A DNA stretch of 64,000 bases from a plasmid. Position numbers and translations under genes: made by a program. Positions 5,003 to 46,459 of the stretch are shown one piece after another (position 1 is the stretch's first letter; the number at the start of each line of letters is the position of its first letter). The notes below the pieces were generated by a model. The model saw nothing but the letters and a program-made list of their open reading frames with translations, did not search any database and was not told where the DNA came from. The DNA lies in sequence record NZ_CP085281.1; one strand, given 5' to 3'.

Positions 5003-5172
5003 ACACAGCCGAGCAGTTCACGACCCCTTCTCGTTCACCGCTGCCTTCAATTGTCGTGCCCTTTCGGCGGCATACAGGCGGGCGCCGCCGGACCTTGTGG
5101 GGCTATGTCATCGGCCCAGGTGTGGGACGCAGCGCTGAGCCGGCTAGGGAGACACTCAGGTGGCAGCCAATG

Positions 5173-9495: not shown

Positions 9496-9512
9496 TTGGG
9501 TCTCGTCTCTCT

Positions 9513-9896
9513 TCAGTTCGCTACGACCATCACTTGGCATTGGATGCCTGCTGCGGCGCTGAGGGAGGCGTCGGCGGTCACGACCGTGCAGTCCAGCGCT
9601 TCGGCCAGCGCGACGTAGCTGGCCGCGCCGGCGTCGAGGACCTCGCGCAGTTCCCACACCCGCGGGAGCAGTCCCAGCTCGCCGACCCGCCGGACTCCCA
9701 GGCCACGCCAGGCGTTCACGGCCGCCTGCGCCGTCTTCTCGTCGAGCTGCCCGAGCGCCAGGCAGCGCCGCAAGCCGTTGACCACCTCGATGTCGATCAC
9801 CTCCGGGGCCCATACCCGGTCACTGGCCAAGACCTTGCGGGCCTGCCCGGCATTGAGCAGCCCAGCCAGCGCGGCGGAGGCGTCCACGACGATCAC
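9513..9896 (-). CDS. vapC: PIN-domain toxin VapC
   Basis: IVVDASAAL N-terminus and acidic residues typical of PIN. GTG start at 9896..9894 overlaps the vapB stop. Confidence 0.8.
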   Translation of the reverse strand: MIVVDASAALAGLLNAGQARKVLASDRVWAPEVIDIEVVNGLRRCLALGQLDEKTAQAAVNAWRGLGVRRVGELGLLPRVWELREVLDAGAASYVALAEALDCTVVTADASLSAAAGIQCQVMVVAN

Positions 9897-10114
9897 TTTC
9901 CTGAACGTCCCTCGTCGACCGCGGCGACGATGTCGGTGGTGTCCACGCTGAGATCGGGTAATGCTGCCAGGAGGTCGGCGTTGTCGGCGCGCCGTGCCGC
10001 TTCGGCCAGCTCCCGCATCGCGTAGGTGTTCACCGAGACACGCTCGCGGGCGGCGAGCCGTTCGAGCCGTTCGATCACGTCGGCTGGCACGTTCCGTAGG
10101 TACACCGTTCCCAT
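9893..10114 (-). CDS. vapB: VapB antitoxin
   Basis: 73-aa protein MGTVYLRNVPADVIERLERLA.. immediately upstream of and overlapping vapC. ATG at 10114..10112. Confidence 0.7.
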   Translation of the reverse strand: MGTVYLRNVPADVIERLERLAARERVSVNTYAMRELAEAARRADNADLLAALPDLSVDTTDIVAAVDEGRSGK

Positions 10115-18551: not shown

Positions 18552-18664
18552 TGTCCGTGGCCATGAAAAAGTACCCACTGGTGGCCAAGTGGAGGTATCC
18601 GCTGGTGGCCGGATAAAAGTACCCACCCCGTGTTCGTCGTGTCGATCAGGAACTGCGGGCCCCG

Positions 18665-20224
18665 GTGGTGACGGTGAAGGTGCCAACCACTCATCGTCAC
18701 CACCGGGGAGTTCCATTGAAGTCTGCGAGGGACCGCATGGACATCATTTCTGCTTATCAACAAGTCGGGTCATACCGCGGCGCCGCGCAGCTGTGCGGCA
18801 CCACCCATAGGACCGTCAAGAAAGTCGTCGAGAAATTCGAAGCCGGTGAGAGCGCACCGCCGCGGGTCGAGCGGGCCCACAATTACGATGCGGTGGCCGA
18901 TCTGGTCGCCGAGCGTGTCGAGAAGTCGGCGGGTCGGATGTCGGCGAAGCGGATGTTGCCGATCGCGAAGGCCGCCGGTTACGACGGGTCGGCACGCAAC
19001 TTCCGTCGCCTCGTTGCTGAGGCGAAGGTGTTGTGGCGCAACGAACATCACCGGGGACGTCGCCCGGCGGTGTGGTCACCGGGTGAGTATCTGGTGATCG
19101 ACTGGGCCCAAGCCGCACCCGGGTTGTTCCTGTTCTGCGCAGTGCTGGCGTTCTCCCGGTGGCGCTTCGTCGCGTTCGCCACCGACCAGAAGGCGTCCAC
19201 GACGTTGGCGTTGATCGCCGAAGCGATGGCCGGGATAGGTGGTGTCCCGGCCCGGGTGCTGGCCGACCGGATGGCCTGTCTGAAGGGCGGCGTGGTCGCC
19301 AACGTGGTGATCCCTACCGCCGAATACGTCCGGCTGGCAGGTCATTACGGTTTCGCGCCGGACTTCTGCCATGCATCCGACCCTAAATCGAAGGGCATCG
19401 TGGAGAACTTGTGCGGCTACGCCCAACGCGACCTCGCCGTCCCGCTGCTCACCGACGCCGCCATCGCCGGGGTGCCGGTTGATCTGCGTGCTGCCAACGT
19501 TGCGGCCAGGGCGTGGTGTCTGGAGGTCAATGCCGCGGTGCATTCGGAGATCTGTGCGGTCCCCGATGAGCAACTGCTGATCGAACGGGAACTCCTGCAA
19601 CCGTTGCCGTCGCTGCAACTTCGAATCGGGGCACCGTCGGTGATCCGCAAGGTCGACCGGCTGTCGTGTGTCCGGTATGCCTCGGCCCGCTACTCGGTGC
19701 CCACCCGACTGATCGGGACCAGCGTGGCCGTCGTCGTCGATCACGGCGCGCTGTGCATCGTGGAGCCCGCGACTGGGGTGATCGTGGCTGAGCACGAACT
19801 GGGTGCCCCAGGCAGCGCATCAGTCCTCGACGATCACTACGACGGTCCCCGCCCGGAACCTAGCCGCGGACCACGACCCAAAACTCATGCTGAGCAACAG
19901 TTCTGCACACTCGGCGAGGATGCTCAAGCATTCCTGGTCGGGGCCGCCGCGATCGGCAACACTCGGCTGGGCTCCGAACTGGAAGTCCTACTGGCGTTGG
20001 GCGCCGCCCACGGCACCGACGCCTTGGTCGGCGCGCTTCGCCGGGCGGTCGCGTTCCGGAGGTTCCGCGCGATCGACGTGCGGTCCATCCTGGCCGCCGG
20101 CGCCGGAACGCCGCAGCCCCGCCCCGCCGGGGATGCGTTGATCCTGGACCTCCCAGTCGCCCCGACCCGATCCCTGGCTGCCTACACGGTCAACCCGGCC
20201 GCAGACGGTGGTGCCACGTCATGA
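18665..20224 (+). CDS. istA: IS21-family transposase IstA
   Basis: N-terminal HTH, DDE-type core, 519 aa. Overlaps istB by 4 nt. Confidence 0.85.
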   Translation: MVTVKVPTTHRHHRGVPLKSARDRMDIISAYQQVGSYRGAAQLCGTTHRTVKKVVEKFEAGESAPPRVERAHNYDAVADLVAERVEKSAGRMSAKRMLPIAKAAGYDGSARNFRRLVAEAKVLWRNEHHRGRRPAVWSPGEYLVIDWAQAAPGLFLFCAVLAFSRWRFVAFATDQKASTTLALIAEAMAGIGGVPARVLADRMACLKGGVVANVVIPTAEYVRLAGHYGFAPDFCHASDPKSKGIVENLCGYAQRDLAVPLLTDAAIAGVPVDLRAANVAARAWCLEVNAAVHSEICAVPDEQLLIERELLQPLPSLQLRIGAPSVIRKVDRLSCVRYASARYSVPTRLIGTSVAVVVDHGALCIVEPATGVIVAEHELGAPGSASVLDDHYDGPRPEPSRGPRPKTHAEQQFCTLGEDAQAFLVGAAAIGNTRLGSELEVLLALGAAHGTDALVGALRRAVAFRRFRAIDVRSILAAGAGTPQPRPAGDALILDLPVAPTRSLAAYTVNPAADGGATS

Positions 20225-21030
20225 ACGGCACGCCAGCCAAGGCAACCAAACCCGTTGCACCACTGTCCACTCCGCAATTCGCCGCTGATCTCGACGCCGG
20301 GCTGCGGCGGCTCAAGCTCGCCGCGATCCGGCGCACCGCCCCCGAAGTCCTAATCACCGCCAAGACCCAGCGCTGGACCCCCGAAGAAGTGCTACGGACC
20401 CTCGTCGAGACCGAACTGGCGGCACGGGATGCCTCCAACGTCGTCAACCGGCTCAAGGCTGCCGGGTTCCCGGTCACCAAGACCTTGGAGTCCTTCGACG
20501 TGGCCGCATCGTCGATTCAGCCCAAGGTGTTCGACTACCTGTCGAGCCTGGAATGGGTTCGCACACAACAGAATCTGGCGATCATCGGACCGGCTGGGAC
20601 CGGCAAGTCCCACACCCTGATCGGACTGGGGGTCGCTGCGATTCATGCTGGGCACAAGGTCCGGTACTTCACCGCCGCCGACCTCGTCGAAACCCTCTAC
20701 CGCGGCTTGGCCGACAACACCGTCGGCAAGATCATCGAATCCCTGCTCCGTGTCGATCTGATCATCCTCGACGAACTGGGCTTCGCCCCACTCGACGACA
20801 CCGGCACCCAGCTGCTGTTCCGCCTCGTCGCCGGCGCCTACGAACGCCGCTCCCTGGCCATCGGCTCGCACTGGCCCTTCCAAGAGTGGGGTCGATTCCT
20901 GCCCGAGCAGACCACCGCCGTCAGCATCTTGGACCGGCTCCTGCATCACGCCACCGTCGTCATCACCGACGGCCAGTCCTACCGAATGAAGGACGCCCAA
21001 CACCGGAAGGAGAACCCCCAACCAATCTAA
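20221..21030 (+). CDS. istB: IS21-family ATP-binding helper IstB
   Basis: Walker A GPAGTGKSH, Walker B DLIILDELG, 269 aa. Confidence 0.85.
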   Translation: MNGTPAKATKPVAPLSTPQFAADLDAGLRRLKLAAIRRTAPEVLITAKTQRWTPEEVLRTLVETELAARDASNVVNRLKAAGFPVTKTLESFDVAASSIQPKVFDYLSSLEWVRTQQNLAIIGPAGTGKSHTLIGLGVAAIHAGHKVRYFTAADLVETLYRGLADNTVGKIIESLLRVDLIILDELGFAPLDDTGTQLLFRLVAGAYERRSLAIGSHWPFQEWGRFLPEQTTAVSILDRLLHHATVVITDGQSYRMKDAQHRKENPQPI

Positions 21031-21096
21031 GAATCACTGCACGGGGTGGGTACTTTTATCCGGCCACCAGCGGGTACTTCTACTTGGCCATTGACA

Positions 21097-24289: not shown

Positions 24290-24691
24290 GTGGCATTCGA
24301 CGACCTCAGCGCCGAGGACCTGGCGGCCGCCAGCAGCCGCGTTGCCGAGGACGCCTTGCACTCAGCCAGACTGCTGGCCGCCGAGTACCTCGTTGCGGGC
24401 CCCGGATCGAGCGTCGGTGACGCAGCCACTGCCGTGCGCGTCCTTCTCACCCAGGACCCCGGCGACACCCGCTACGAACTCCTTCAGGCGTTCGAGAAGC
24501 CCTGGGCGGCGCTGACCATCCGCATCTTGGCACCAGTCGCCGACCCCACCCCGGCTATGCAAGATGCCCGCGATCGAGGTGTCACCGCGGGCAAGATCGC
24601 CGAAGCGCTGGGCGTCAGTCAGCAGGCCCTTTATCAGAATCCGCGGTACGCCGACATCGTGCGCCGGCCGCGAAGAAACTCTGAAACTTAG
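24290..24691 (+). CDS. hypothetical protein with C-terminal HTH-like segment
   Basis: GTG start. VTAGKIAEALGVSQQALYQ near the C-terminus. Confidence 0.4.
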   Translation: MAFDDLSAEDLAAASSRVAEDALHSARLLAAEYLVAGPGSSVGDAATAVRVLLTQDPGDTRYELLQAFEKPWAALTIRILAPVADPTPAMQDARDRGVTAGKIAEALGVSQQALYQNPRYADIVRRPRRNSET

Positions 24692-25035: not shown

Positions 25036-25062
25036 CATTAGACAGGTGCAGGAAGTCTAATG
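25036..25062 (+). other. left-end subterminal hairpin CATTAGAC-loop-GTCTAATG of the IS200/IS605 element
   Basis: Perfect 8-bp stem with 11-nt loop, overlapping the tnpA ATG. Confidence 0.5.
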
Positions 25063-25470
25063 TTGTCGGTTGTGGGTGTTACGTTGCGGACGAACGCGAA
25101 CATCGCTTTCCAGTGTGCGTATCACGTGGTGTGGTGCCCGAAGTACCGGCGCAGTGTGATCGGTGGCCGCATGGAGGCGCGGCTCAAAGAGATCATCGCC
25201 GAGGTGATCGCAGAGAAGGGGGCATGGATGATCGAACTCGAAACCATGCCCGACCATGTGCACCTGCTGGTGGAGGTGGATCCGCAGTACGGGGTGCACA
25301 AGCTGGTCAAGGCCATCAAGGGCCGCTCGTCACGTCTGCTGCGTGAGGAATTTCCGTGGTTGAAGTCGCGATTGCCGTCGCTGTGGACGAACTCGTATTT
25401 CGTCGCCACCATCGGGGGAGCCCCGTTGTCGGTGATCAAACGGTACGTCGAGACGCAAAAGGACCGTTGA
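25060..25470 (+). CDS. tnpA: IS200-like Y1 (HUH) transposase TnpA
   Basis: YHVVWCPKYRR, HUH motif HVHLLVEV, catalytic Tyr region TNSYFVATIG. Confidence 0.85.
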   Translation: MLSVVGVTLRTNANIAFQCAYHVVWCPKYRRSVIGGRMEARLKEIIAEVIAEKGAWMIELETMPDHVHLLVEVDPQYGVHKLVKAIKGRSSRLLREEFPWLKSRLPSLWTNSYFVATIGGAPLSVIKRYVETQKDR

Positions 25471-25473
25471 TTC

Positions 25474-26727
25474 ATGTTGACGGGCAGGCGGTTTCGGGTC
25501 GAGTTCACCGGCGAGCAGGCTCAGTTCGCCGAACAGATCGGCGCGGCCTGCCGGGCGGTGTGGAACACCGGCCTGGAGCAGCGCCGGGAGTACCGGCGCC
25601 GCGGCGCGTGGATGAACTACGGGCCCCAGGCCAAAGAACTGGCTGACGCTAAGACCGAGCATCCGTGGCTCAAAGACGTTCCGGGGCACTGCCTGCAGCA
25701 GACGTTGATGGATCTGGACAAGGCCTGCCGCGCGCACGGCACTTGGAAGGTGCATTGGCGCTCAGGCCGACGATGGGCGCCGTCGTTCCGGTTCCCCGAG
25801 GGCAACAAGATGGCGGTAGAGAAGCTCAACCGACGCCATGGCCGGATCAAGTTGCCCAAGCTCGGCTGGGTGAAGTTCCGCCAGACGCGCAGTCTGGTTG
25901 GTGAAACCATCCGGTCGGCCACCTTGACTCGGGAAGGCGGCCGGCATTGGTTCCTGTCGCTGCTGGTCGACGATGGCGCCGGCAGTCCGGCCGCTCACAC
26001 GATGCCGGGGACGGCTGTCGGGGTTGATCGTGGTGTCGCGGTGGCGATCGCGACCAGCGGCGGCGACCTGATCGACCGCGTGTTCCTCAGCGCCGCTGAG
26101 CGGCGTCGCGTCGCGACGTTGCAGCGCAAGCTGTCTCGGTGCGCGAAGGGATCGGCCAACCGCGCCAAGGCGCGGTCCGCGCTGGCACAGGTTCGGGCCC
26201 GGGAACGCCGCCGCCGCCAAGAATTTTGCGCCCAGACCGCTCACCGGCTCGCGGCCGCCCATGCGGTAGTGGTGCTGGAAGATTTGAAGACCCGCAACAT
26301 GACCCGTACGGCGAAAGGAACCTTGGATCAGCCCGGCCTCAACGTGAAAGCCAAGTCCGGGCTCAACCGCGCCATCCTGGCCAAAGGATGGCATCAGTTC
26401 GCGTTGGCACTGTCCTCAGCGGCCCGGTACACCGGGACCGCTGTGGTGACGGTGCCGGCGCCGTACACGTCGCAACGCTGCTCGCAGTGTCAGCAGGTGG
26501 ACCCGAAATCCCGCGAGAGCCAAGCGGTATTCCGGTGCACCCACTGCTCGCACCACGAGCATGCGGACGTCAACGCCGCCAAGAACATTTTGGCCGCAGG
26601 GCTTGCGGTCACCGCCTGCCAAGACCAACCCCGGCCCACGGGCAAGGAACGGTCGCCGAAGCAGGAACCAGCAGGAAACCGCGAGGAATTACTGCTCCAA
26701 CACCCTCACCGCACACCCGCGGCGTGA
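25474..26727 (+). CDS. tnpB: TnpB/OrfB RNA-guided endonuclease-like protein
   Basis: C-terminal zinc finger CSQCQQV..CTHCSHHEHADVNAAKNI. 417 aa. Confidence 0.85.
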   Translation: MLTGRRFRVEFTGEQAQFAEQIGAACRAVWNTGLEQRREYRRRGAWMNYGPQAKELADAKTEHPWLKDVPGHCLQQTLMDLDKACRAHGTWKVHWRSGRRWAPSFRFPEGNKMAVEKLNRRHGRIKLPKLGWVKFRQTRSLVGETIRSATLTREGGRHWFLSLLVDDGAGSPAAHTMPGTAVGVDRGVAVAIATSGGDLIDRVFLSAAERRRVATLQRKLSRCAKGSANRAKARSALAQVRARERRRRQEFCAQTAHRLAAAHAVVVLEDLKTRNMTRTAKGTLDQPGLNVKAKSGLNRAILAKGWHQFALALSSAARYTGTAVVTVPAPYTSQRCSQCQQVDPKSRESQAVFRCTHCSHHEHADVNAAKNILAAGLAVTACQDQPRPTGKERSPKQEPAGNREELLLQHPHRTPAA

Positions 26728-31116: not shown

Positions 31117-31845
31117 GACTGGGGGTCAGCCGCTGGCTGCTCCTTGAGCGCCGTCTTGCGCGGTGCCCTCCTGGGGCCAGGATCCTGGAGTCGGGTTATC
31201 GCCGGGGACATGTCATCGCCGCTGGTCAGCACGCTGCCGCGCCTGTGGCAGCGGCGGCATCGACGATCTTCGGACCCGGGCGCGAGTCAACGTTCTGCCA
31301 GAAACGCTGACGGTCCTCGGGTGCTGAGCCGGCCGTAGGTCTCCTGAGTGGCCAGCTGCAACGCAGTGTCGCCGCGGCCGCGGTACGCCGGGCTGCGGAG
31401 ATCGTCGATGCCGCCGGGAGGGTGGTCGCCTCCTCCATCTGGTTTTTGGTCGTCTACTCAAGAAGTACCTGCGCCGACCGGTGTTTCCGTCAATTCGATG
31501 TGGGCGAATTTCACCGGTGGCGAGTCGGCAGGGGTGTCGTTGCGCGCTGCTAGCGTGGATTTCGACGTCCTCCTCCCCCCGAGGACGTTCCCCGCGCCCC
31601 GGTCGCCCTCCCCCCTGGCGGCCGGGGCGCATCACGTTTCAGCCCGGTCGGCGAGGCCTTCAGACGGTTCCGCGTGCTTACACTGGGCCCATCGCCACGC
31701 ACGGCGGCGTGAATCCCGGCATCGACTGCAGCCGCCCACATCGGCCAGTCACGTCAGACCGGGACAAGACCCACCGGGTTCCGTGTCACTACCCAGCAAA
31801 GAGACTTCCGCGCAGATGTGGGGCGACGCGGAGGATTTACTTTGG

Positions 31846-34402: not shown

Positions 34403-35089
34403 CTACGCTCGGCGTGAGTGGCCGAACTCTTCGATGAGGTGGTCGACGAACAGTGGCACTTCTTGGGTGGCTGGGGCCTGCCAGACTTGGTCGAAGGGTC
34501 CGTTACCGGGTTCGATGTTGATTTCGATGGTGACCGCGCCCGCGGATTTGGCGATCGCCGCGAATTGGTTCGCTGGGTACACCGTTCCGGAAGTGCCGAC
34601 GGCGACGAAAATGTCGGCTGCGCTGAGCTTCTCGGTGACGTGATCGAGGCCGATCGTGCGTTCCCCGAACCACACGACGTGGGGGCGCCAGTGCCGGTCT
34701 GTCTCGGCGACGTCATGGCGCCAGTCAAGTATTTCACCTGTGTCGACATGGCGGATCTTTGACAGTTCACCGTGCATTGCAGTGATGCGAAGGCTCCCGG
34801 CGCGCTGATGCAAGTCGTCGATGTTCTGCGTGACGAGATGGATCTGGTCTCCCAGCGCGCGTTCGAGCCGTGCCAGTGCGTGATGAGCTGCGTTGGGTTG
34901 GGCCTGGGCCATCTGTCGGCGCAGGCGGTTGTAGAAACGCTGCACCAGCTCCGGGTTGGCGGCGAACCCCTCGGGAGTGGCTACATCTTGGACTCGGTGG
35001 CCCTCCCACATGCCGGTCGGGCCGCGGAACGTCGGCAGTCCTGATTCGGCGCTGATGCCCGCGCCGGTCAGCACCACAATGCGGGGCAC
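34403..35089 (-). CDS. Sir2-family NAD-dependent deacylase-like protein lacking the zinc-ribbon Cys motif
   Basis: GAGISAESGLPTFRG, TQNIDDLHQRAG, catalytic HG, VAVGTSGTVYPA. No Cys at all between HG and VWFGE. GTG start. Confidence 0.8.
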   Translation of the reverse strand: MPRIVVLTGAGISAESGLPTFRGPTGMWEGHRVQDVATPEGFAANPELVQRFYNRLRRQMAQAQPNAAHHALARLERALGDQIHLVTQNIDDLHQRAGSLRITAMHGELSKIRHVDTGEILDWRHDVAETDRHWRPHVVWFGERTIGLDHVTEKLSAADIFVAVGTSGTVYPANQFAAIAKSAGAVTIEINIEPGNGPFDQVWQAPATQEVPLFVDHLIEEFGHSRRA

Positions 35090-35101
35090 GTGCGGATCGG
35101 T

Positions 35102-37506: not shown

Positions 37507-37890
37507 GTGAGGGTGATTCTTCGGACGCCGGCCGAACTGGTCGCCGAGTACGACCTTCCCGACGTGGACAGCGGGGCGAGCGACGAGGAGATCCTGGCGG
37601 CCGCGGCCGCGGCCGAGCCGATTCGGCGATCCGAGCCCGAGGTCGTCGGTGAGACCTATGTCTACGCCCGCGGGTTGGATGACTTGGCGCAGCAGGGACG
37701 GCGCCTGATTCAGGCTGACTCGCGGCTCGACAGCGAGAAGAAGGCCGCCCAGCAGCTGGCGCGGCGGTACCTGGCGCAGGGCCGCAGCAAGCGCGACATC
37801 GCCCAGACACTGCACATCACGCGCAAGACGTTGGACGCCTGGTTGGGCGACACTGAACCGCGCGAGCCCGCGCGAAGTGATGAATCATGA
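37507..37890 (+). CDS. hypothetical HTH regulator
   Basis: GTG start after GAAGGAGA. C-terminal RSKRDIAQTLHITRKTLDAWL. Confidence 0.5.
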   Translation: MRVILRTPAELVAEYDLPDVDSGASDEEILAAAAAAEPIRRSEPEVVGETYVYARGLDDLAQQGRRLIQADSRLDSEKKAAQQLARRYLAQGRSKRDIAQTLHITRKTLDAWLGDTEPREPARSDES

Positions 37891-37964
37891 CCGGGCCGTG
37901 GCAGCACCGATACCACCGGTTGAGCTGGACCAATCGCACGTCCCCGCGTTGCTACTATCGCTGC

Positions 37965-38630
37965 ATGGCCGACGGGCAGGTGTGGGGCCGGCTGCGTGAG
38001 GTGGCTGCCGGCCAATTCGGCCTGTTCACCGCAGCCCAGGCCCGCCAGCATGGAGTGGCCCGCTACGAGCTGACCCGCCGGATCGACTCCGGGGAGCTGT
38101 TTCGGGCCCACCACGGTGTGTACGGGTTCACCGCGGACTCCGCGACGATGTTCGCGTTCGAGGACTGGGCTGCGCAGTGGCTGGCCTTGCGTCCGGAGGC
38201 GGACATCGAGCAGCGGCGAGCCGATCCGGATTGCGTCATCAGTCACGACAGCGCGGCGGTGATCCAGGAGTTGGGCACGATCGTGGCCCGGGGCTTGTTC
38301 TTGACCGGGCCGCGGCGCATCAACGCCCGCTCGGCGCGGGTGCACGCCTATCGCCGCGATATCGGTGAGCGTGGTGTCGACTGGGACGTAGTGAAGGGTC
38401 TTCCGGTGTCCACTCCGGGGCGGATCATCGCCGACCTGGCCCGTGATGATCTCGATGGTGCCCATCAGGGTGCGGTGATCGCCGACGTTCTCGACGAGGG
38501 CCTGCTGACCCTGGACGAGGTGGGTGCTCGCCTGGATCCGTTCGCGCACCGGTGGGGTGAGTCCGGCGGGGCGGAGTTGGCGCGGCGTTTCCTGGCTGAC
38601 GCTGGGCGTGCGCTGCCGCTGTCGGTATAG
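37965..38630 (+). CDS. abiEi: AbiEi-type antitoxin/transcriptional regulator
   Basis: N-terminal GRLREVAAGQFGLFTAAQARQHGVARYELTRRIDSGELFRAHHGVYGF, typical AbiEi. ATG at 37965. Confidence 0.7.
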   Translation: MADGQVWGRLREVAAGQFGLFTAAQARQHGVARYELTRRIDSGELFRAHHGVYGFTADSATMFAFEDWAAQWLALRPEADIEQRRADPDCVISHDSAAVIQELGTIVARGLFLTGPRRINARSARVHAYRRDIGERGVDWDVVKGLPVSTPGRIIADLARDDLDGAHQGAVIADVLDEGLLTLDEVGARLDPFAHRWGESGGAELARRFLADAGRALPLSV

Positions 38631-38639
38631 CGCAGGAGC

Positions 38640-39668
38640 ATGTGCAAGGCCAGCAATGAGCCCGGTGGGCCGAAGCGATGCTCGGCCGACATGCGGGCGC
38701 GGGCGCAGGAGTCCCACGACCGGGTCGCGGCGTTGGAGCAGCGGCAGCGTGAGATCGAGGAGATGCTCGATGCGCGCCGCACCTACGGTTCGGAGGGGGC
38801 GTTTCGGGCGGCGCTCAATGCGCGGATCCGCGATATCGCGCGGCGCAGCGGCAGTGATTCTGCTGAGATTGCGCGGCGGTTTGCGTTGCAGCAGTTCGTG
38901 TCCCGGCTTTTCGATCGTGATCCGGAGTCGTGGTTGGTGACCGGCGGGACGGCATTGCAGTTTCGGACGACGGAGGCGCGGGCGACCGCGGACCTGGATC
39001 TGGCGGTGACCCGCGGGGTGGAGGACTTGACGGAGGCACTGACTGCGGCGGCGAGCCGGCGGGCTGGGGAGCACGGTGAGTTCGTGGTGGCGGTGAGTCC
39101 CGGTAGTGGTCCTGGTGCGTTCACCGGGAAGATCACCTACATGCTGGGGGGCTCGCGGTTCGCGGTGGCCAAGTTGGATGTTGCTGCGGGGCGGGCGTTT
39201 CCGTTCGAGCCGGACACGTTGGTTCCTGATCCGGTTGTGCCGATCGATGATGTGCGGCCGATGTCGAGAGTCCGTACGTATGCGGTGGCCTCGCACCTGG
39301 CCGACAAGGTCGCCGCGATGTATGAGGTGCATGGCAGCAGCGGTGCGTCCCCGTCGACGCGTTCGCATGACCTGGCCGACATCGTGATCCTGTCGCGGTG
39401 TGCGCGGGTCGACGCCGAGGAGTTGCGGGGTGCGGTGCGCCAGCAGGAGCAGCGCCGTGGGGTCATGGTGCCCACTCCCCTGACGCTGCCTTCTGAGCAG
39501 TGGCGGCGCAGCTATCCGTCTCGGGTGGCTGATGCGGGGTTGCCGGCCGAGCTGCGCGACGCTGATGCGGCGCTGGCTGAGGCCGACCGGTTCGTCGGCG
39601 CGGTCCTCGATGGCCGGATTTCATCGGGCACGTGGGATCCCGATCGCCGATCCTGGACACCGAAATAG
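38640..39668 (+). CDS. abiEii: AbiEii/DUF1814-family nucleotidyltransferase toxin
   Basis: GGTALQFR..RATADLDLAV nucleotidyltransferase-like, RSHDLADIVIL. Immediately downstream of abiEi. Confidence 0.65.
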   Translation: MCKASNEPGGPKRCSADMRARAQESHDRVAALEQRQREIEEMLDARRTYGSEGAFRAALNARIRDIARRSGSDSAEIARRFALQQFVSRLFDRDPESWLVTGGTALQFRTTEARATADLDLAVTRGVEDLTEALTAAASRRAGEHGEFVVAVSPGSGPGAFTGKITYMLGGSRFAVAKLDVAAGRAFPFEPDTLVPDPVVPIDDVRPMSRVRTYAVASHLADKVAAMYEVHGSSGASPSTRSHDLADIVILSRCARVDAEELRGAVRQQEQRRGVMVPTPLTLPSEQWRRSYPSRVADAGLPAELRDADAALAEADRFVGAVLDGRISSGTWDPDRRSWTPK

Positions 39669-39782: not shown

Positions 39783-40529
39783 TCAGAGGAAGTCGCCGCC
39801 GTCGCGGATCCGCTGGCGCAGCGGGTCCAGCGCCACCTCGATGACGTAGTCGTCGTCGCCGAAGAAGCGCTGGCGATAGTTCTGCAGCGCCGTTTCCAGG
39901 GCGTGGCGGTTGGCGTGCTGGCCGAGGAACTGCGGACGCGCCGTGAGCGGCACCAGCCCGGTGGTCAGCCAGTACTTGTTGAGGCGTTCGACGGACTCCA
40001 GCTGCTCGACCGACGGGGCGAGATCGGCTTCGGCGTCCCAGTGCGGATGCATGAGGATCAGCCCGTTGGTGGTCGGGATCATGGTGTCGATGCACTGACA
40101 TAGTGCCCACGCGCCGATTCGGTGGCCTTGGAGTGCGGGGTCGACGTCGAGCCACAGCGGCAGCATGACGACTTCTACGCAGTCGGAGAACTGTTGTGCC
40201 AGTTCAGGTCCGATGCGGTGATCGTCGAAGAGTGGGGCGAAACGGTCGGTGCGCAGGTTGTGGTACTGCTCGCGGTTGAGCAGCTCCTGGGCCAGGCCGT
40301 CGACGCCGGTGCGGACCATCACGAAGTGCAGGCGGCCGACGAGGACGTTGGGGTCGCCGAGCCGGGATTCGAGATGGGTCATCAGGATGTCGGCGCGCCA
40401 GAGCACTGTTGCGTGGCTGTCGTACACGGTGTCGGCGGTTTCCAGGTGCAGTGACGGCGCGAACATGCCGATGGTGGGCAGGTCGGGGGCGAGGGACTTC
40501 ACGAACTCGTCGAGGGCGATTATCGCCAT
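39783..40529 (-). CDS. hypothetical protein
   Basis: 248-aa ORF, last gene of the ArdC-led minus-strand run. Confidence 0.5.
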   Translation of the reverse strand: MAIIALDEFVKSLAPDLPTIGMFAPSLHLETADTVYDSHATVLWRADILMTHLESRLGDPNVLVGRLHFVMVRTGVDGLAQELLNREQYHNLRTDRFAPLFDDHRIGPELAQQFSDCVEVVMLPLWLDVDPALQGHRIGAWALCQCIDTMIPTTNGLILMHPHWDAEADLAPSVEQLESVERLNKYWLTTGLVPLTARPQFLGQHANRHALETALQNYRQRFFGDDDYVIEVALDPLRQRIRDGGDFL

Positions 40530-40606
40530 GGGTGTCTCCCTCTACGTGACTGTGGCGCCGGCACGGTCTCGCGTGGGGACCTAAGTGTGCTTGTCCATGA
40601 CATTGG

Positions 40607-41605
40607 TTATGCAAGGTCGGTGCGCGCGCCTTGCCGGCGTTGCACCTGTTGCACTTTGGCGGCGGGGTACCCGCTGATGCGGGTGATGCCGCGGTCGGCC
40701 ATGATGGCGCGGGCTCGGGATTGGCTGCAGCCAAGGAACTCGGCGACTTTCTCGATGGGCCACACCTCATCCATGCGGATGGCCATGTCGCTGTTGCCGT
40801 TATGTGCAGCCTGGCGCCAGGTACGGCGCAGTGTTCGCATACGACCTCGATTCGATCTGACTTCGTCGACGTCGGAGTAGGCCGTCGGGAGAAATGGTGT
40901 GTCGCCGAGGGACCATGCGTGCAAGCGTCGGCCGCGGCCGTGTAGACCTTGCACGGAGCTATGCCCGGGCAGCAGCCGCGTGGTGCGTTCGTCGGTGTCC
41001 TGAAGGAATTCTGCGGACGTCGACGGTGGCAGGAACAGCGCGAGCTGCGATGAGCCGAAGAGTGGCGGAAGTTCGTCTCGGCGGAATGGAATGGTCGCGA
41101 GCCAGCAGCGGTAGTGCAACGGATAAAGCGCCGCTGTGCGGTCGTATTCACCGAATTCGCTTTCCCCGAACGAGCGCTCCGATACGTAAGCTGAGCGGCC
41201 CGCGTCCCGTTCCCAACGGTCCAGCCAGAGCGTGTAGAAGTCCACGGGTACCCGAACTGCTCCGATCGAGGCGAGGAACACGGCCCGAAGTGTGTTGAGC
41301 CTGTTCATCAGTTCAAAGTCCCGATCGCGGTTGGGGCCAGGCGCACGGCGTAGTTGCTCGATCGTGGCGGAGTCTTCGATGATGCGGAGACGCTCGGTGC
41401 GTAGCTGAGCAGGATCGGCGGCGCTCACAACCTGGGCGATCTGTTCTGGGCTGTTCTGGCGGGGATCGAGGCTGCCGCAGGAGGTGCAGGTTCCCTCAGG
41501 CAGGTCCGTCTGAACCGGCACGTGGTCTGCGGGTAACACAGTTCCGCAGACCACGCACAACCGCCTCACTGCGTCGAGCGTGAGCATGGTCAACGCGCTT
41601 GTCAT
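40607..41605 (-). CDS. hypothetical protein with N-terminal zinc ribbon and C-terminal HTH
   Basis: CVVCG..CTSCG near the N-terminus. C-terminal IEKVAEFLGCSQSRARAIM. Confidence 0.5.
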   Translation of the reverse strand: MTSALTMLTLDAVRRLCVVCGTVLPADHVPVQTDLPEGTCTSCGSLDPRQNSPEQIAQVVSAADPAQLRTERLRIIEDSATIEQLRRAPGPNRDRDFELMNRLNTLRAVFLASIGAVRVPVDFYTLWLDRWERDAGRSAYVSERSFGESEFGEYDRTAALYPLHYRCWLATIPFRRDELPPLFGSSQLALFLPPSTSAEFLQDTDERTTRLLPGHSSVQGLHGRGRRLHAWSLGDTPFLPTAYSDVDEVRSNRGRMRTLRRTWRQAAHNGNSDMAIRMDEVWPIEKVAEFLGCSQSRARAIMADRGITRISGYPAAKVQQVQRRQGARTDLA

Positions 41606-41658
41606 GCTCCCGACACTAGCCGACTTACGAGCGTTTTGCTCGTATGTTGTGGGTTGGA

Positions 41659-42597
41659 TCAGCTGAGGCTACGCAGGAGCTGGCCCAGGCGTACGAGTCG
41701 TTGGCCGGTCGCCAGGCATTTGGGGGCCAGGTGGGCGCCGCGGCCGTCGGAGAGTTGCTCGGCGAGCGTCGTGGGTTCGCCGGCGGCCAGGACTGCGGTG
41801 ATCGCCGCCTCCAGATCCAGGAGTACCTGCGCCGCGGCGCCGGAGCTTGGGGACGTGTCCTCGTCGCTGGTCCGGGTGTTTTTGACGGGATCGCCGGCGG
41901 GCGTGGCCGGTGCGGCCGCCGCTGTGGCGCCGACCGCTGGGGATGTGTCATCAGGGCTGGTAGGGGTGTTTTCGTCGTCGCCCCATGGCGGGGCGCTGGA
42001 TGTGGATTCCTGGCCGCCGCCGGTGGTGATGTCGAACGGTGGCGCGTCGACGTCGACGTCGTCGGGGATCTCCGCGGGGACCAGGGCGCCCAGTGGGGAT
42101 GCCGGCGGGGTCGATGATTCGTGCAGGGGGCCGAAGCCTGGGGCGGTGGAGCGCTGGGTGACGGTGTCGATGAGGTCGCGCAGGGCGTCGGTTTGGGCGT
42201 CGGGGTCGGTGAGTCCCTCCAGCACCGCGGGGGCTTGTTCGATGACGACGCGGGCGCCGGTGACCCCGAGGCGGGCGACGTCGGAGGAGGTGACCGGGAT
42301 GCGGGTTCCGGGGGCGGTTAGTTCCTGCAGGGGCAGGATCAGGCCGACGATGCCCTGCTGGTAGCGGCGGGCGTTGGAGGCTGCGCATCCGAGTTGGTCT
42401 TGGACGAAGGCGGTGAAGCCGGTGTAGGGGCGGCCGGCGCCGTCGTTGATGTAGCGCCAGTCCTCGTCGCGGTAGATCTCGGCGAGGACCTCGAACGCCG
42501 TCTGGAAGGCGTTGTGTAGCAGCTGGGCTCGGCGCAGGGCGCGTTCTTGGCGGGTTTCGATGACGCCGGCTTCTTGGAAGGCGAGGTCGGTGCTCAT
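41659..42597 (-). CDS. hypothetical protein with Pro/Thr-rich tail carrying two DTSP repeat insertions
   Basis: ATG at 42597 (M32) overlaps the upstream stop (ATGA). Contains repeat copies d and e. Confidence 0.5.
   Translation of the reverse strand: MSTDLAFQEAGVIETRQERALRRAQLLHNAFQTAFEVLAEIYRDEDWRYINDGAGRPYTGFTAFVQDQLGCAASNARRYQQGIVGLILPLQELTAPGTRIPVTSSDVARLGVTGARVVIEQAPAVLEGLTDPDAQTDALRDLIDTVTQRSTAPGFGPLHESSTPPASPLGALVPAEIPDDVDVDAPPFDITTGGGQESTSSAPPWGDDENTPTSPDDTSPAVGATAAAAPATPAGDPVKNTRTSDEDTSPSSGAAAQVLLDLEAAITAVLAAGEPTTLAEQLSDGRGAHLAPKCLATGQRLVRLGQLLRSLS
41849..41878 (+). repeat. dispersed ~30-bp repeat, copy d
   Basis: ggggacgtgtcctcgtcgctggtccgggtg. Confidence 0.55.
41939..41968 (+). 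repeat. dispersed ~30-bp repeat, copy e
   Basis: ggggatgtgtcatcagggctggtaggggtg. Confidence 0.5.
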
Positions 42598-43205
42598 CGT
42601 GGGGTCCGCTGCTGGATCGCGGCGTCGATGGGTTCGGCGGCGTCGTCGAGGAAGCTGCGCAGACGCTTCTGGGTGGCCGGGTCGGCCCATGCGGTGGCGA
42701 TGACGTCGGCCAGGTCGTCGGCTAGGACGCCGAGTTCGGCGGTGACGTCCAGGCGGAGCCGCTTGCGCGTTTGCAGGTCGGGCATGAGCCGCAGCAGCGT
42801 GATGGTGACGGTGTTGGTGTCGGTCGAGGCCGGGCTGTTGCGGAAGGTGGCCATGATGCGCTGTTCGACGAGCGTTTTGGCCAGGGGGTCGCGGAAGGAG
42901 CCGACGGGGATGACGGCCAGGGGGCCGTCGGTGTCGCCGGCGTTGCCGCGGGAGAGTCGCTCTTCGTACTCCTCGACGGCCATGGCCAGCCCGGACAGGT
43001 AGATGGTCTTGAGGGCTTTGCGTTCGTGCTCGTCGCGGGTGAGTTCGAAGCGGCGGAACGTTTCGGCGGCGCCGTCGGGAGTGGAGGCGTAGGCGATCGC
43101 GTCGGCGTCGCGGCGGCGGCGGGCTTTGTCCAGTTTGGCCTGCACCTTGTCGAGTTCGCGCAGGAGTTCTTCGCGGGTCGGTTCCTGGGTCATGGTGTCA
43201 GTCAT
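42594..43205 (-). CDS. hypothetical protein
   Basis: ATG at 43205 with GGAGCGAG RBS. The listed ORF extends to a GTG at 43298, but that extension is low-complexity. Confidence 0.5.
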   Translation of the reverse strand: MTDTMTQEPTREELLRELDKVQAKLDKARRRRDADAIAYASTPDGAAETFRRFELTRDEHERKALKTIYLSGLAMAVEEYEERLSRGNAGDTDGPLAVIPVGSFRDPLAKTLVEQRIMATFRNSPASTDTNTVTITLLRLMPDLQTRKRLRLDVTAELGVLADDLADVIATAWADPATQKRLRSFLDDAAEPIDAAIQQRTPR

Positions 43206-43356
43206 TGTCTCGCTCCTGGGCTTCGTCGACGCCGAAGAACTGCTCGGCGGCTGCGGTGGCGGCTGCTTCGGTGTCGCCGGTGAAGGTGTGTCGTTCACCG
43301 GTGTCGGGGTCTTCGATCTCGATCTCGACGGCGGCTGGTTGACCGGGGGTGTTCAT
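43198..43356 (-). CDS. small acidic ORF (52 aa) not in the ORF track
   Basis: ATG at 43356 preceded by AGAAGGG. Protein MNTPGQPAAVEIEIEDPDTGERHTFTGDTEAAATAAAEQFFGVDEAQERDND. Its TGA at 43200..43198 lies 2 nt downstream of the next gene's ATG (43205..43203), read in a different frame. Confidence 0.35.
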   Translation of the reverse strand: MNTPGQPAAVEIEIEDPDTGERHTFTGDTEAAATAAAEQFFGVDEAQERDND

Positions 43357-43368
43357 TGGTGTGCCCTT

Positions 43369-44472
43369 CTATGGCATGACGGCCGGGGCGGCCTGTGGGA
43401 GTGCGCCGATGATGGACTTGCAGGCCTTGTTGACCCGGTCGGCGGTCTGCTGCACCTTCTTGGGGTCCCCCTTGGCCCAGCCGTCGATGTAGGCGAATGC
43501 GCTGCCTCCGGGGGTGAGGCCGTAGTGGCGGCCGATGACGTAGGCGACGCTTTCGGCCTCGACCTCCATCGTGGGGCGCTGGCCGCCGGGGCCGTTGTGG
43601 TAGTCGTGGTGGCGTTCCATGTGGCCCATCTCGATGTGCGCCAATTCGTGGGCGAGCACCATGGCTTGGTGGGCGTCGGAGTAGCGGGTGCTGACGACGA
43701 CCTTCTTGGTGGGCTTGTCCTGGGTGTAGCCCTCGGGTCCGTTCTCGGGTAGCTCGACCCGTTCGACGGTGTAGCCGTGGGCGGTGATCTGGTTCTCGAG
43801 TTCGGTGTGCATCTCAGGTGGTGCGACGCCGGTTTCGCGGGTGTAGGTGACCTCGGGGCGCTGCGGCAGCGGCGGGCCGGTGGTGTCGGATACGTCGTAG
43901 ACCGGGACGCTGAGCCAGCCGGTCATGACGTCTTCCTCGGTGCCGTCGTCCTTCTTGCGCTTCTTGATCTGGGGTGCGCGGATCCAGATCGCCTTCGAGC
44001 CGGCGATCAGGTCGCGGTTGAACTTCTTGTTCCACACCTTCTTCAGGCCGCCGACGAAGGTCGCATCGGGGCGCTGCATGCGCACCAGCAGCTGGTTCTG
44101 CAGCGAGTAGTGGTGGAACTGGCTGGCGTAGTGCAGCCAGTCCTGCCACTGCTCGGCGGTGTTGAGGTTGGCGATCGCGTCGTCGATCTCGCGGCGGATG
44201 TCCTCGATGCGGGTCGTCTTGTCGGCGAAGCTGACCTTCTTGGACCGCGGCGCGGGCGCCGGCGCTTCTGCTGGTGTCGCGTCGGCGACTGCCGGTGCTG
44301 GCGCGGGATGGCCCGCATCGGCCAGAGCTGCCATCAGAACGGACTCGGCTTCTTCGAGGACCTCGACGGCGTGGGCTGAGTGACTGTAGGCGATGCGGGT
44401 GTCCCCGGAGCAGCGGCGTGGCCCTCCTGGGTCGGTCGTGGCGCGACACACGATGAAGTACCTCCTCGGCAT
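43369..44472 (-). CDS. ardC: ArdC-like antirestriction protein (N-terminal ssDNA-binding domain plus C-terminal HExxH metallopeptidase-like domain)
   Basis: FHHYSLQNQLLVRMQRPDATFVGGLKKVW..GSKAIWIRAP resembles the ArdC N-domain. HELAHIEMGH zincin motif. Start may be an internal M. Confidence 0.7.
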   Translation of the reverse strand: MPRRYFIVCRATTDPGGPRRCSGDTRIAYSHSAHAVEVLEEAESVLMAALADAGHPAPAPAVADATPAEAPAPAPRSKKVSFADKTTRIEDIRREIDDAIANLNTAEQWQDWLHYASQFHHYSLQNQLLVRMQRPDATFVGGLKKVWNKKFNRDLIAGSKAIWIRAPQIKKRKKDDGTEEDVMTGWLSVPVYDVSDTTGPPLPQRPEVTYTRETGVAPPEMHTELENQITAHGYTVERVELPENGPEGYTQDKPTKKVVVSTRYSDAHQAMVLAHELAHIEMGHMERHHDYHNGPGGQRPTMEVEAESVAYVIGRHYGLTPGGSAFAYIDGWAKGDPKKVQQTADRVNKACKSIIGALPQAAPAVMP

Positions 44473-44645
44473 GGGACGCGGGGACCGCTACCGAAATAGC
44501 GCCAGCCCGGCAAAGGAGAGCTGGTGTGCGTTCCTACTTCTTGAAGTACCGGCGGGGACCCCGTTTTCCGTCGCTCCTGGACCGAACTTTTTCCGCCTCG
44601 ACGCGCCCTCCCCCATCACCGCTGCATCGGCCGCGCTTCAACGCT

Positions 44646-44680
44646 GTGTATACCGATATGCCATTTTTGTGTATAGTGGT
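44646..44680 (+). promoter_or_regulatory. conserved promoter/operator-like element, copy 2
   Basis: gtgtataccgatatgccatttttgtgtatagtggt with -10-like TATAGT at 44672-44677, 28 nt upstream of the ARH start. Divergent from ardC. Confidence 0.4.
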
Positions 44681-44704
44681 GCCCATAAGAAAGGTTGGTG
44701 CATC

Positions 44705-45781
44705 ATGACGAGACGAACTGCTACCCAGGCTCGCTACCGCAACGCCCTCATCGGGTTGGCCGCCGGCGACGCGTGGGGCTACCAGGTCGAATTCCGTAAG
44801 TACGCCTGCATGCCCGCCTACCCGGTGCCCGCACCCAAGAAGATCTGGCGGATCTCCGACGACACCCAGATGACGCTTGCCCTGCACGACGCCCTCGTCG
44901 ACGTCGCCGGCCAGCTCGACGACATCGACGCGGTAACCAAGGCCATCACCGAGCGCTTCCTCGAATGGCAGGTCGACCGCGACAACAACCGTGCGCCGGG
45001 GGCCACGTGCATGGGGTCCCTTACACGTCTGCGGCGCGGCATTCAGTGGCACGAAGAGGCTGGCGCGCTGGCCCGGCCTGGCTGCGGGGCCGTGATGCGG
45101 CTCGCGCCGGCGGCCCTGTGCCCGGAGCCGGTGTGGCGGGGCATCACTGCGTTGCAGGCGGTGCTGACCCACAAGCATCCGCGGGCGATCGCGTCCGCCC
45201 TGGTGCTCAGTGACGCCATCCGGTCTGCGACCACGGTGCGTGGGCATTTTCTCGAACATGCCATCAGCGCGGCGATGTCGGTCGTTTCGGGTGAAAGCCC
45301 GTGGCTGCGTGACGATTACCTGCTGCGGGTACTTTCACCGATGACCTCGGACATTTCCGGCCTGCTGGCCGCGGGCGTCAAGGACGTCCTGCTCGATGCG
45401 CTCCTGGACGCCTACGCCGTCAAGCAGGAGCTGACCACGCTGACCCCAGCGGAGTACGGCGACCCCTGCGTGGGAATCGGTGAGGGCTGGGAGTCGGGCA
45501 CGGCGACCGCCCTCGGGCTGCTGGTGGCCGACATGGCCACCGCGCCCGGGCGGCGTCGGGCTCCCCTCAACGGGCGCGAGGCGCTGGCGTGGGCGGCAAC
45601 GAGCAATGGCGACTCCGACTCGATCGCCAGCATCGCCGGCGCGGTCATCGGCGCCGCGCACACCGGGTCGAGCTATTGGGCCGGGGTGAAGATGGCCCCC
45701 CGGTTCGAGCCGCGGTACGCCAAGGCGCTGAGGGCGGCTCCTGCTGCAGCTGTTGGCTTTCTCGCGGCGAGCGCGGGGTGA
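44705..45781 (+). CDS. ADP-ribosylglycohydrolase (ARH/DraG family)
   Basis: GLAAGDAWGY, SDDTQMTLA, GCGAVMRLAP, NGDSDSIASIAGAVIGA. ATG at 44705 after GAAAGG. Confidence 0.8.
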   Translation: MTRRTATQARYRNALIGLAAGDAWGYQVEFRKYACMPAYPVPAPKKIWRISDDTQMTLALHDALVDVAGQLDDIDAVTKAITERFLEWQVDRDNNRAPGATCMGSLTRLRRGIQWHEEAGALARPGCGAVMRLAPAALCPEPVWRGITALQAVLTHKHPRAIASALVLSDAIRSATTVRGHFLEHAISAAMSVVSGESPWLRDDYLLRVLSPMTSDISGLLAAGVKDVLLDALLDAYAVKQELTTLTPAEYGDPCVGIGEGWESGTATALGLLVADMATAPGRRRAPLNGREALAWAATSNGDSDSIASIAGAVIGAAHTGSSYWAGVKMAPRFEPRYAKALRAAPAAAVGFLAASAG

Positions 45782-46395
45782 GTCTGGTGCGACCAGGTGC
45801 ATCGGTGGGCAAGTCCGCGAAGATCCGGGACGCTGCGCTTGCGGAGTTCGCGGCGCGTGGTGTTGAAGCCACCTCGTTGCGGCAGGTGGCGGCTAGGGGT
45901 GGTGTCTCAATCGGGTTGGTCCAGCATCACTTTGGTAGCAAAGCCGGTCTCGTCGAGGCTGTCGATGCGCACGTGGCCGACGTGGTTGGCGAGGTGCTGG
46001 TCTCTGCTCCTGAAGCGGTGACGGTCGAAGCGTTTGGTGATCAGTTGATGGCGCTGCTGACGCAACACAGCGTGGTCGCGGAGTACCTCGCTCGGGCGAT
46101 GGCGGACAAGACGCCCTTCGGGTCAATGATTTTCGATCGGTTGATCGCGATGGGCGTTGCGCGGTGGAAGTGCCGCAGCGGCGCCGGCCGAACCTGTGCC
46201 GATGTGGACACCGTGTGGGCGGTGATGAATGTGGTGGTGCTCTTCATTGGCACCATCTTGTTGCGACCTCACGTTGAGCGCCAGCTGTCCGCACCGTTGT
46301 TATCGCCTGACCAGGTGGTCCGGTGGAGGTCCGCCGTCGCCGCATTGACAGCCAAAGGGGTATCTCTGACACGCATGCCGCGCGGCGCGGAATAG
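45778..46395 (+). CDS. TetR-family transcriptional regulator
   Basis: HTH AALAEFAARGVEATSLRQVAARGGVSIGLVQHHFGSKAGL. GTG overlaps the ARH TGA (GTGA). Confidence 0.75.
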   Translation: MSLVRPGASVGKSAKIRDAALAEFAARGVEATSLRQVAARGGVSIGLVQHHFGSKAGLVEAVDAHVADVVGEVLVSAPEAVTVEAFGDQLMALLTQHSVVAEYLARAMADKTPFGSMIFDRLIAMGVARWKCRSGAGRTCADVDTVWAVMNVVVLFIGTILLRPHVERQLSAPLLSPDQVVRWRSAVAALTAKGVSLTRMPRGAE

Positions 46396-46459
46396 TTTCC
46401 CTTACGTCCCTGAGCCGTGCCTTCATCGGGCGCTCAGTCATTGCGGGCAAGGCCGCGGC

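Follow-up and report, generated by a model that had tools for sequence, protein, structure and literature searches.

What could an ADP-ribosylglycohydrolase be doing on a conjugative plasmid of mycobacteria? The question is raised by a 64,000-nt stretch of the plasmid record NZ_CP085281.1 (the window hereafter; G+C about 66%), in which the genes of such an enzyme (ARH, of the ARH/DraG family) and of a TetR-family regulator are placed between an ArdC-like gene block and a long minus-strand operon resembling a type IV secretion system (T4SS). The ArdC-like gene is divergent from the ARH gene, and the stop codon of the latter overlaps the TetR start codon in GTGA at 45778–45781; this layout, described in an earlier note on the stretch, is confirmed. 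The window belongs to a mycobacterial conjugative plasmid of the pRAW-related lineage, which combines an ESX-P locus with a T4SS-like locus. Its closest relative is p1-JPH1 of Mycobacterium avium subsp. hominissuis (191 kb, NZ_AP020327.1), with which much of the window is syntenic at 84–86% nucleotide identity.

The answer preferred here, with a probability of roughly two in three, is that the ARH serves as the eraser or antidote of a large ADP-ribosyltransferase (ART) encoded by the same plasmid family, and that a system of ART, small protein and ARH has been split in the mycobacterial ESX-P/T4SS-like plasmids.

The hydrolase and its relatives

The ARH matches PF03747 (E 4.2e-38; 132 bits against a cut-off of 26.2) over residues 14–319, corresponding to positions 2–279 of the 287 in the model. 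The gene is preceded by a Shine–Dalgarno-like sequence (GAAAGG), its start is the same as in the orthologs, and the product is 92–93% identical to P0001. Residues D22, E29, S51-D52-D53-T54 and D303-S-D305-S306 are invariant in 18 orthologs; E29 and the two longer motifs align with the binuclear metal site of DraG (E28, D60-D61-T62, D243-x-D245-T246). Judged by these residues, the enzyme looks catalytically active. Among solved structures the ARH is nearest to DraG (2woe, 7e-7), to ARH1 of human and mouse and to Tri1 (6dre_A, 2.7e-4), all of which are ADP-ribosyl-arginine hydrolases, and the same specificity would be expected of the plasmid enzyme.

The ARH belongs to this superfamily and to neither the DraG nor the Tri1 family, since it scores far under both equivalog cut-offs (38 bits against 337 for DraG, TIGR02662; 30 bits, E 1.7e-7, against 490 for Tri1, NF041672). 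Nor is it a conserved chromosomal housekeeping ortholog, the finding that would have refuted the proposal of the earlier note: the gene is plasmid-borne, and its homologs are mostly on plasmids and almost only in Mycobacteriales.

The cassette of ART, small protein and ARH

In Rhodococcus ruber, R. pseudokoreensis, R. erythropolis and Dietzia, the ortholog of the ARH (50–61% identity) is the third gene of a cassette, in which it is preceded by genes for an ART of the R-S-ExE type (PF03496/PF01129, 650–820 aa) and a small protein of 56–85 aa. In L002, L010 and L024 a 4-nt overlap joins the small gene to the start of the ARH gene, and in three homologs (P0101, P0118, P0120) the small protein is fused to the N-terminus of the ARH.

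The association was followed in two censuses. In a tblastn search covering 72,556 plasmids, 40 records carried the ARH and 42 the ART; 36 had both, i.e., 36 of the 40 ARH plasmids. At the species level (32 ARH loci, one genome per species, neighbours within 10 kb), the order ART, small protein, ARH was found in 15 of the 20 non-mycobacterial loci, from Rhodococcus, Prescottella, Aldersonia and Dietzia, with one divergent arrangement and one locus retaining only an ART remnant.

The catalytic residues of the ART (R599, S632 and E670-x-E672) are invariant in 27 homologs. Among R-S-E ARTs, the ExE motif goes with arginine-directed enzymes, which agrees with the arginine hydrolases found as the closest solved relatives of the ARH. 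The AlphaFold model of the ART (pLDDT 86) matches ExoS, C3, CDTa and VIP2, as well as the ART chains of two solved ART–ARH toxin/immunity pairs, from Listeria (8za7_B) and from Serratia (Tre1-Tri1; 6dre_B, 6drh_B/F). On the R. erythropolis chromosome, a homologous ART domain is preceded by a membrane-anchored N-terminal region rich in Pro and Thr, its gene lying next to that of an MspA porin, and the small gene and the ARH gene still follow; this looks like the pattern expected of a polymorphic toxin with its cognate immunity gene. We infer that the ART is toxic.

The split pair in mycobacterial plasmids

In p1-JPH1 the main ART gene (82448–84514) is followed by the small gene and then by eccA-eccE of the ESX-P locus, and the ARH gene (147531–148607) lies 63 kb from it. 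M. marinum and M. simiae carry both ART and ARH, and in M. rhodesiae JS60 both appear to be on one contig of 275,506 bp. The cassettes of the orthologs, the co-occurrence on 36 of 40 plasmids and the distant ART of p1-JPH1 favour what the earlier note had listed as one of its options, an antidote whose ART partner lies elsewhere.

The partner can be placed relative to the window. The distance from the ART to a DUF6545-P450 gene pair is about 3 kb in M. marinum and about 14 kb in p1-JPH1, and the window starts inside that pair. Because of this synteny, the main ART is predicted to lie just beyond the left edge, 3–14 kb to the left of the window.

A second ART paralog of p1-JPH1 (569 aa; L001 4480–6189) shares 41% identity with the main ART over 525 aa (E 7e-110) and is located 12 kb from the ARH. 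Its counterpart in the window is a remnant at about 31.3 kb, 85% identical to L001 5483–5668 by blastn and 66% identical over 41 aa by tblastn. The other tblastn matches of the ARTs to the window fall on an N-terminal module of the ArdC-like and AbiEii proteins, which is discussed below.

The following sequence of events could account for these observations. The ancestral unit would be the three-gene cassette of ART, small protein and ARH, with the last two translationally coupled and fused in some homologs. In the mycobacterial lineage the ART and small genes would have come to stand at the head of the ESX-P locus, and the ARH gene would have relocated beside the ArdC-like block, where the T4SS-like operon ends, under a conserved promoter-like element of its own. 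There the ARH would hydrolyse arginine-type ADP-ribose off the protein targets of the ART, so that the plasmid-carrying cell is protected or reset; the TetR, co-translated with the ARH, would be lineage-specific cargo. The overlap and fusions of small protein and ARH, together with a stand-alone ARH that lacks an extension of the Tri1 type, point to a division of labour: the small protein would be the ART-binding partner, which stays with the ART in mycobacterial plasmids, and the ARH a freely relocatable eraser. The small protein might supply the role of the Tri1 extension.

A homolog of the ART-associated small protein is encoded in the window at 9358–9480 (minus strand; 56% identity, E 8e-12), upstream of a gene for a 378-aa protein. 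This protein has a 371-aa paralog that shares its motif HRWxVRGHWRRQWYPS; a short FtsK/SpoIIIE-like gene lies between the genes of the two, and a WhiA homolog of the plasmid is encoded nearby. Another NAD-using enzyme of the window is the product of a stand-alone Sir2-family gene (34403–35101, minus strand; PF02146, E 1e-39), which lies in a 1.25-kb insertion after a ligD-like gene. It was considered as a partner of the ARH and rejected, since the insertion is specific to the window: the relatives p1-JPH1 and L003 lack it and still have the ARH.

Points against the assignment and alternative explanations

Several observations weigh against the ARH being the antidote of the plasmid family's own ART. 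Five plasmids carry a divergent ART without this ARH, and a sixth has an ART fragment only. A tblastn search with four ARTs and the ARTs of p1-JPH1 found no intact ART in the 64-kb window; deletion has left just a fragment of its one ART paralog, and the presence of the main ART beyond the left edge is extrapolated from relatives. The core of the ARH begins at residue 10, leaving positions 1–65 of the Tri1 model without a counterpart, so that the toxin-occluding N-terminal extension is missing. Five loci of Tsukamurella, Tomitella and R. rhodnii, which look chromosomal, have neither an ART within 10 kb nor an ArdC-like neighbour. In the literature, no paper was found on a plasmid ART–ARH cassette or on ADP-ribosylation connected with pVAPN; a 2026 paper on a mycobacterial type VII secretion system (T7SS) toxin concerns an unrelated glycoside hydrolase. 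Finally, there is no ART within 10 kb of the ARH in any of the 12 Mycobacterium or Mycolicibacterium-type loci of the species-level census, where linkage is to the ArdC-like block: the ARH adjoins this block in all 12, divergently as in the window in nine and co-directionally in three. In the co-directional loci, as in L026, the ARH resembles the final gene of the block. It is possible that the function of the ARH is tied to the ArdC-like block.

In one of the Tsukamurella loci (L055), an open reading frame (ORF) at 9403–9978 (minus strand), divergent from the chromosomal ARH homolog (44% identity), is macrodomain-like by eye (VNAAN...GGG), which suggests a different ADP-ribose-processing context for the ARH of that clade.

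The constant neighbourhood of the ArdC-like block, kept in two orientations and unlinked from the ART, together with the promoter-like element of its own, could be explained by stand-alone counter-defence. The ARH, expressed with the ArdC-like establishment genes, would strip ADP-ribose placed by host or competitor ARTs on components of the plasmid or the cell, independently of any ART of the plasmid. The tight linkage of ART, small protein and ARH in the sister clade, the co-occurrence of ARH and ART, and the retention of the ART by plasmids with the split arrangement speak against this, as does the failure of ARH, ArdC-like protein and ART to match any PADLOC model. For the known defence ARTs, ADP-ribosylation of DNA or RNA is reversed by macrodomain or NADAR enzymes and not by DraG-like ARHs. 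Stand-alone counter-defence is therefore considered rather improbable.

A reversible switch of the DraT/DraG kind could also be envisaged, in which ART and ARH modify a plasmid or host protein (e.g., a component of ESX-P/T4SS transfer or of transcription) to time conjugation, with no toxin–antidote pair involved. The location of the ART directly upstream of eccA-eccB-eccC and of the ARH at the end of the T4SS-like operon would suit such a function, and so would DraG being the best solved match of an ARH that lacks the toxin-occluding extension. However, the score of the ARH is far below the DraG equivalog cut-off, the fold of the ART is nearest to exotoxins and toxin/immunity pairs, and the cassette occurs in varied contexts on Rhodococcus plasmids and a chromosome, one variant being polymorphic-toxin-like in its transmembrane/Pro-Thr-rich ART and MspA neighbour. 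The switch is regarded as unlikely, and the split antidote system is retained as the preferred explanation.

The TetR gene and the intergenic region

The regulator carries a TetR_N domain (PF00440, E 5.3e-14, residues 16–62). The gene could equally well start at an in-frame GTG at 45787, in which case a 5-nt gap would replace the 4-nt overlap with the ARH gene. The ARH–TetR pair had earlier been taken for a unit, which turns out to be specific to the window: tblastn detected no TetR homolog in any of the 12 Mycobacterium-type loci or in the remaining ARH loci that were fetched. The nearest homolog (63% aa identity) is encoded in an unrelated context on pMYCSM02; that locus was fetched as the closest homolog and gave the only match among the fetched loci.

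Synteny with L001, L003 and L032–L034 breaks at about 45750–45784 and at 46457–46467. The slot thus delimited measures 0.5–1.3 kb and is filled differently in each relative, with a 225-aa gene, an 86-aa gene or three small unrelated genes. The 225-aa gene that follows the ARH in L003 was considered as a cryptic TetR and rejected, as it has no similarity to the TetR and no Pfam match. Between the slot and the serine-protease gene of the following operon, a 118-aa ORF with no known domain (46647–47003, minus strand) is an insertion absent from p1-JPH1 and L003.

Upstream of the ARH gene, a -10-like TATAGT shared by all relatives is found at 44672–44677, about 27 nt 5' of the ATG, and ATGTATAGT is kept in four of four relatives. 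No sigma-70 consensus promoter was found in the operator and promoter search of this region, and positions 44400–44760 contain no inverted repeat of at least 10 nt. An imperfect palindrome, ATACCGATAT, is present at 44650–44659; its perfect form, ATATCGATAT, occurs in L003, a relative without the TetR.

These results bear on a further explanation, in which the ARH–TetR pair would be a self-contained operon whose substrate is a metabolite or drug carrying ADP-ribose (e.g., ADP-ribosyl-rifamycin), with the ARH as a small-molecule or metabolic hydrolase under TetR control. The two genes are translationally coupled, and TetR regulators usually sense small molecules. Of the features of a TetR-regulated operon, the helix-turn-helix domain is present; a conserved association and a palindromic operator were not found. 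The TetR is absent from related ARH loci and occupies a variable slot, its nearest homolog lies in an unrelated context, and no operator is specific to the window, the sole palindrome being perfect in a relative that lacks the TetR. A TetR-controlled hydrolase is therefore highly improbable. The coupling of ARH and TetR is real and recent, with no link seen by which the TetR would control the ARH; most likely the TetR is lineage-specific cargo, a one-off passenger in the variable slot.

The ArdC-like protein and its gene block

The product of the ArdC-like gene matches Peptidase_M78 (E 1.6e-6). With the single sequence, the match to ArdcN (PF08401) does not reach the threshold (E 0.041; 14.5 bits, cut-off 22.6), and phmmer found no match in the PDB. 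Homologs of 40–60% identity contain both ArdcN and Peptidase_M78. A profile of 30 sequences leads to the ArdC structures of R388 (6i89/6sna, E 8e-8, ArdC residues 75–287), ahead of IrrE, and the top PDB match of the AlphaFold2 model (pLDDT 88) in Foldseek is 6i89 (E 4e-8, probability 1.00). The ArdC-N domain is thus recognized through homologs, profile and fold, the C-terminal protease domain aligns with that of ArdC, and its HExxH motif (H274-E275-x-x-H278) is invariant across 30 homologs. On these grounds the earlier assignment to ArdC holds: the protein is a remote but real ArdC homolog, which may act in antirestriction and bind single-stranded DNA (ssDNA). Its true start is probably the GTG at 44451, since homologs begin with MCRATTDPGG.

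In comparison with ArdC of R388 (IncW), an antirestriction protein that combines ssDNA binding with a metalloprotease domain, the two-domain architecture and the fold are the same. The identity is about 17%, the C-terminal domain scores as Peptidase_M78/IrrE-like, and an additional N-terminal part of 85 residues consists of leader, helix and linker. The mycobacterial gene also heads a conserved block of unknown genes by a T4SS-like/ESX-P system, on plasmids that are often without a relaxase.

An ArdC-led operon, as had been proposed, is confirmed by the conservation of the ArdC-like gene and two downstream genes beside the ARH: the 234-aa and 343-aa proteins of the block adjoin both in 11 of the 11 Mycobacterium-type loci long enough to judge (L036, a fragment of 1.7 kb, is too short to be counted). 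Pfam and NCBIfam gave no matches for the other proteins of the block. One of its genes (40607–41605, minus strand; 332 aa, no known domain) is specific to the window and lies in an insertion that p1-JPH1 and L003 do not have; the segment 40520–41664 is missing from p1-JPH1.

Next to the block, a type IV toxin–antitoxin pair, AbiEi/AbiEii, is encoded at 37887–38630 and 38640–39668 (plus strand; PADLOC, 1.5e-72 for AbiEi and 4e-111 for AbiEii). These two proteins alone were recognized by PADLOC, where the ARH, ArdC-like protein, ART, TetR and block genes match no model.

Positions of the main features are collected in Table 1.

Table 1. Features of the window and of related loci; coordinates are those of the window unless a locus is named.
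Feature	Coordinates	Strand	Remarks
ArdC-like gene	43369–44451	-	ORF reaches 44472; N-terminal leader module, ArdC-N-like domain, HExxH metallopeptidase domain
N-terminal module of ArdC-like protein, ~45 aa	44317–44451	-	MCRATTDPGGPRRCSGDTR then helix
Remainder of ArdC-led block	39783–43298	-	42594–43298, 41659–42690, 40607–41605, 39783–40529; no known domains
Divergent intergenic region ArdC-like/ARH	44452–44704		232–253 bp
ARH/DraG-family ADP-ribosylglycohydrolase, 358 aa	44705–45781	+	PF03747
TetR-family regulator, 205 aa	45778–46395	+	TetR_N (PF00440)
Variable cargo slot 3' of ARH	45785–46456		Synteny breaks
Remnant of second ART paralog, 189 bp	31245–31428	-	blastn and tblastn against p1-JPH1
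Small-protein-homolog module genes	5173–6288, 6345–7565, 8116–9252, 9358–9480, 10149–11219	-	
Further copy of N-terminal module	38640–38774	+	
Module copy in L001	6040–6189	-	
Module copy in L016	~24480–24608	-	
Module copy in L015	7577 onward		

The shared N-terminal module

The ArdC-like protein, the AbiEii toxin, both ARTs of p1-JPH1 and the ART of Dietzia have in common an N-terminal module, MC-x5-7-GG(P)-R/K-RC followed by a helix, which is covered by no Pfam family. A profile of its 45 residues was searched against 1.84 billion representative proteins and found 152 at E <= 1e-3, 31 of them at E <= 1e-10. They are from Actinomycetota, including Mycolicibacterium and a Frondihabitans plasmid, range from 57 to 736 aa in length, and in nearly all cases the match begins at residue 1. 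The domains attached to the module include ArdC-N/M78, ART, PD-(D/E)XK nuclease, AbiEii, protein kinase, poly(A)-polymerase-like nucleotidyltransferase (NTase) and pentapeptide repeats. The ARH (0 of 18 orthologs) and the TetR do not carry it. A literature search found no paper on a GGPRRC motif, and the module appears to be undescribed; it could be a common targeting or metal-binding leader.

A more speculative proposal, offered as a long shot, is that the module could be a signal marking a set of plasmid effectors for delivery to the recipient by the T4SS-like/ESX-P machinery. A short pulse of ADP-ribosylation by the ART in the new host would be erased, upon expression of the plasmid, by the module-free ARH, whose gene lies beside ardC with a promoter of its own. 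If so, this would be a self-limiting writer/eraser establishment system with no known precedent in conjugation. The module offers a testable definition of the effector repertoire of actinobacterial plasmids.

In the polyvalent proteins of conjugative elements (Iyer et al. 2017, PMC5512222), ART domains are found with effector domains of ArdC-type, nuclease, kinase and NTase classes, for which action on the new host has been predicted; the repertoire attached to the module resembles this set. As with these proteins and phage T4 Alt, the ART of the plasmids considered here is encoded by a mobile element and has such domains alongside it. Unlike in polyvalent proteins, the domains reside in separate proteins sharing an N-terminal module, and the ART is accompanied by a dedicated eraser, the ARH; delivery to the recipient is hypothetical.

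Position relative to transfer genes

The minus-strand operon on the far side of the ARH and TetR genes encodes a serine protease, EspC-like proteins, an FtsK/SpoIIIE-TrwB-like ATPase and a DUF4226-SLT protein; its counterpart in p1-JPH1 extends to an ATP-binding protein and a "conjugal transfer protein". It is taken to be the T4SS-like locus of pRAW-type plasmids (PMC4173767). Three EspC-like genes stand in tandem at 50426–52677 (minus strand), and the near-identical C-terminal domain of about 105 aa in the second and third, which differ in their N-terminal regions, indicates a recent duplication. Insertion sequences of the window are IS607 (transposase plus TnpB), IS21 (istA/istB) and IS200/IS605 (tnpA plus TnpB), at 2929–5017, 18617–21096 and 25042–26727; in p1-JPH1, another IS200/IS605 copy sits exactly between the ArdC-like gene and the ARH gene.

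The earlier note had labelled the locus a possible leading region of transfer, and this label found no support from a relaxase, an oriT or a structure resembling an ssDNA promoter. No homolog of a MobF relaxase was detected in the window, in the fetched pieces of p1-JPH1, in the Rhodococcus loci or within 10 kb of the 32 ARH loci, and p1-JPH1 was called non-mobilizable by MOB-suite. Related linear plasmids of M. avium have been reported to lack relaxases (PMC12803027). Folded as ssDNA, the intergenic region 44452–44704 is less stable than shuffled sequences (z +1.24 and +1.97) and forms no hairpin resembling an ssDNA promoter.

A location in a leading region is plausible for one relative only, the bovine virulence plasmid pVAPN1572 of Prescottella equi (L024 17614–23825), if oriT is in the gap: there mobF follows the ART, small and ARH genes at a distance of 650 bp and has the same orientation. 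This adjacency is not general.

Comparison with known systems

The ARH locus is a variant of the ART–ARH pair theme, and neither an ARH–TetR module nor a demonstrable leading-region island. ART–ARH pairs are familiar from interbacterial toxin/immunity modules and from the DraT/DraG switch. Here a pair of this kind is found to be conserved on conjugative and linear plasmids throughout Mycobacteriales, among them plasmids of M. avium, M. marinum and M. simiae and the pVAPN virulence plasmid of Prescottella equi. In mycobacteria the writer is physically apart from the eraser, which is embedded in the ArdC-like block by the transfer genes. Should proteins of the host or recipient be the targets of the ART, the pair would constitute a new layer of plasmid–host control in a clinically relevant group. 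The ART, small protein and ARH would also provide a tractable experimental handle.

The closest parallels are Tre1-Tri1 of Serratia proteamaculans, a type VI secretion system (T6SS) ART toxin with its ARH immunity protein (6dre/6drh), and the ART–ARH pair of Listeria monocytogenes (8za7), in which an R-S-E-type ART is likewise paired with a DraG-like ARH. In the orthologous loci the ARH gene follows the ART gene, an adjacency not seen in the Mycobacterium-type loci. Unlike in both of these pairs, the genes are located on conjugative plasmids and not in T6SS or T7SSb toxin loci, the ART is a protein of 650–820 aa with a long helical N-terminal region and a Cys-containing leader, and a separate small protein, sometimes fused to the ARH, is encoded between the two. 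The ARH also lacks the N-terminal extension by which Tri1 occludes its toxin, and in the mycobacterial lineage the genes are tens of kilobases apart.

With DraT-DraG, which reversibly ADP-ribosylates dinitrogenase reductase, the plasmid system shares the writer/eraser logic and the conserved residues of the binuclear metal site. It differs in having no nitrogenase context and in the partner ART, which is of the C3/VIP2 exotoxin type and not a DraT.

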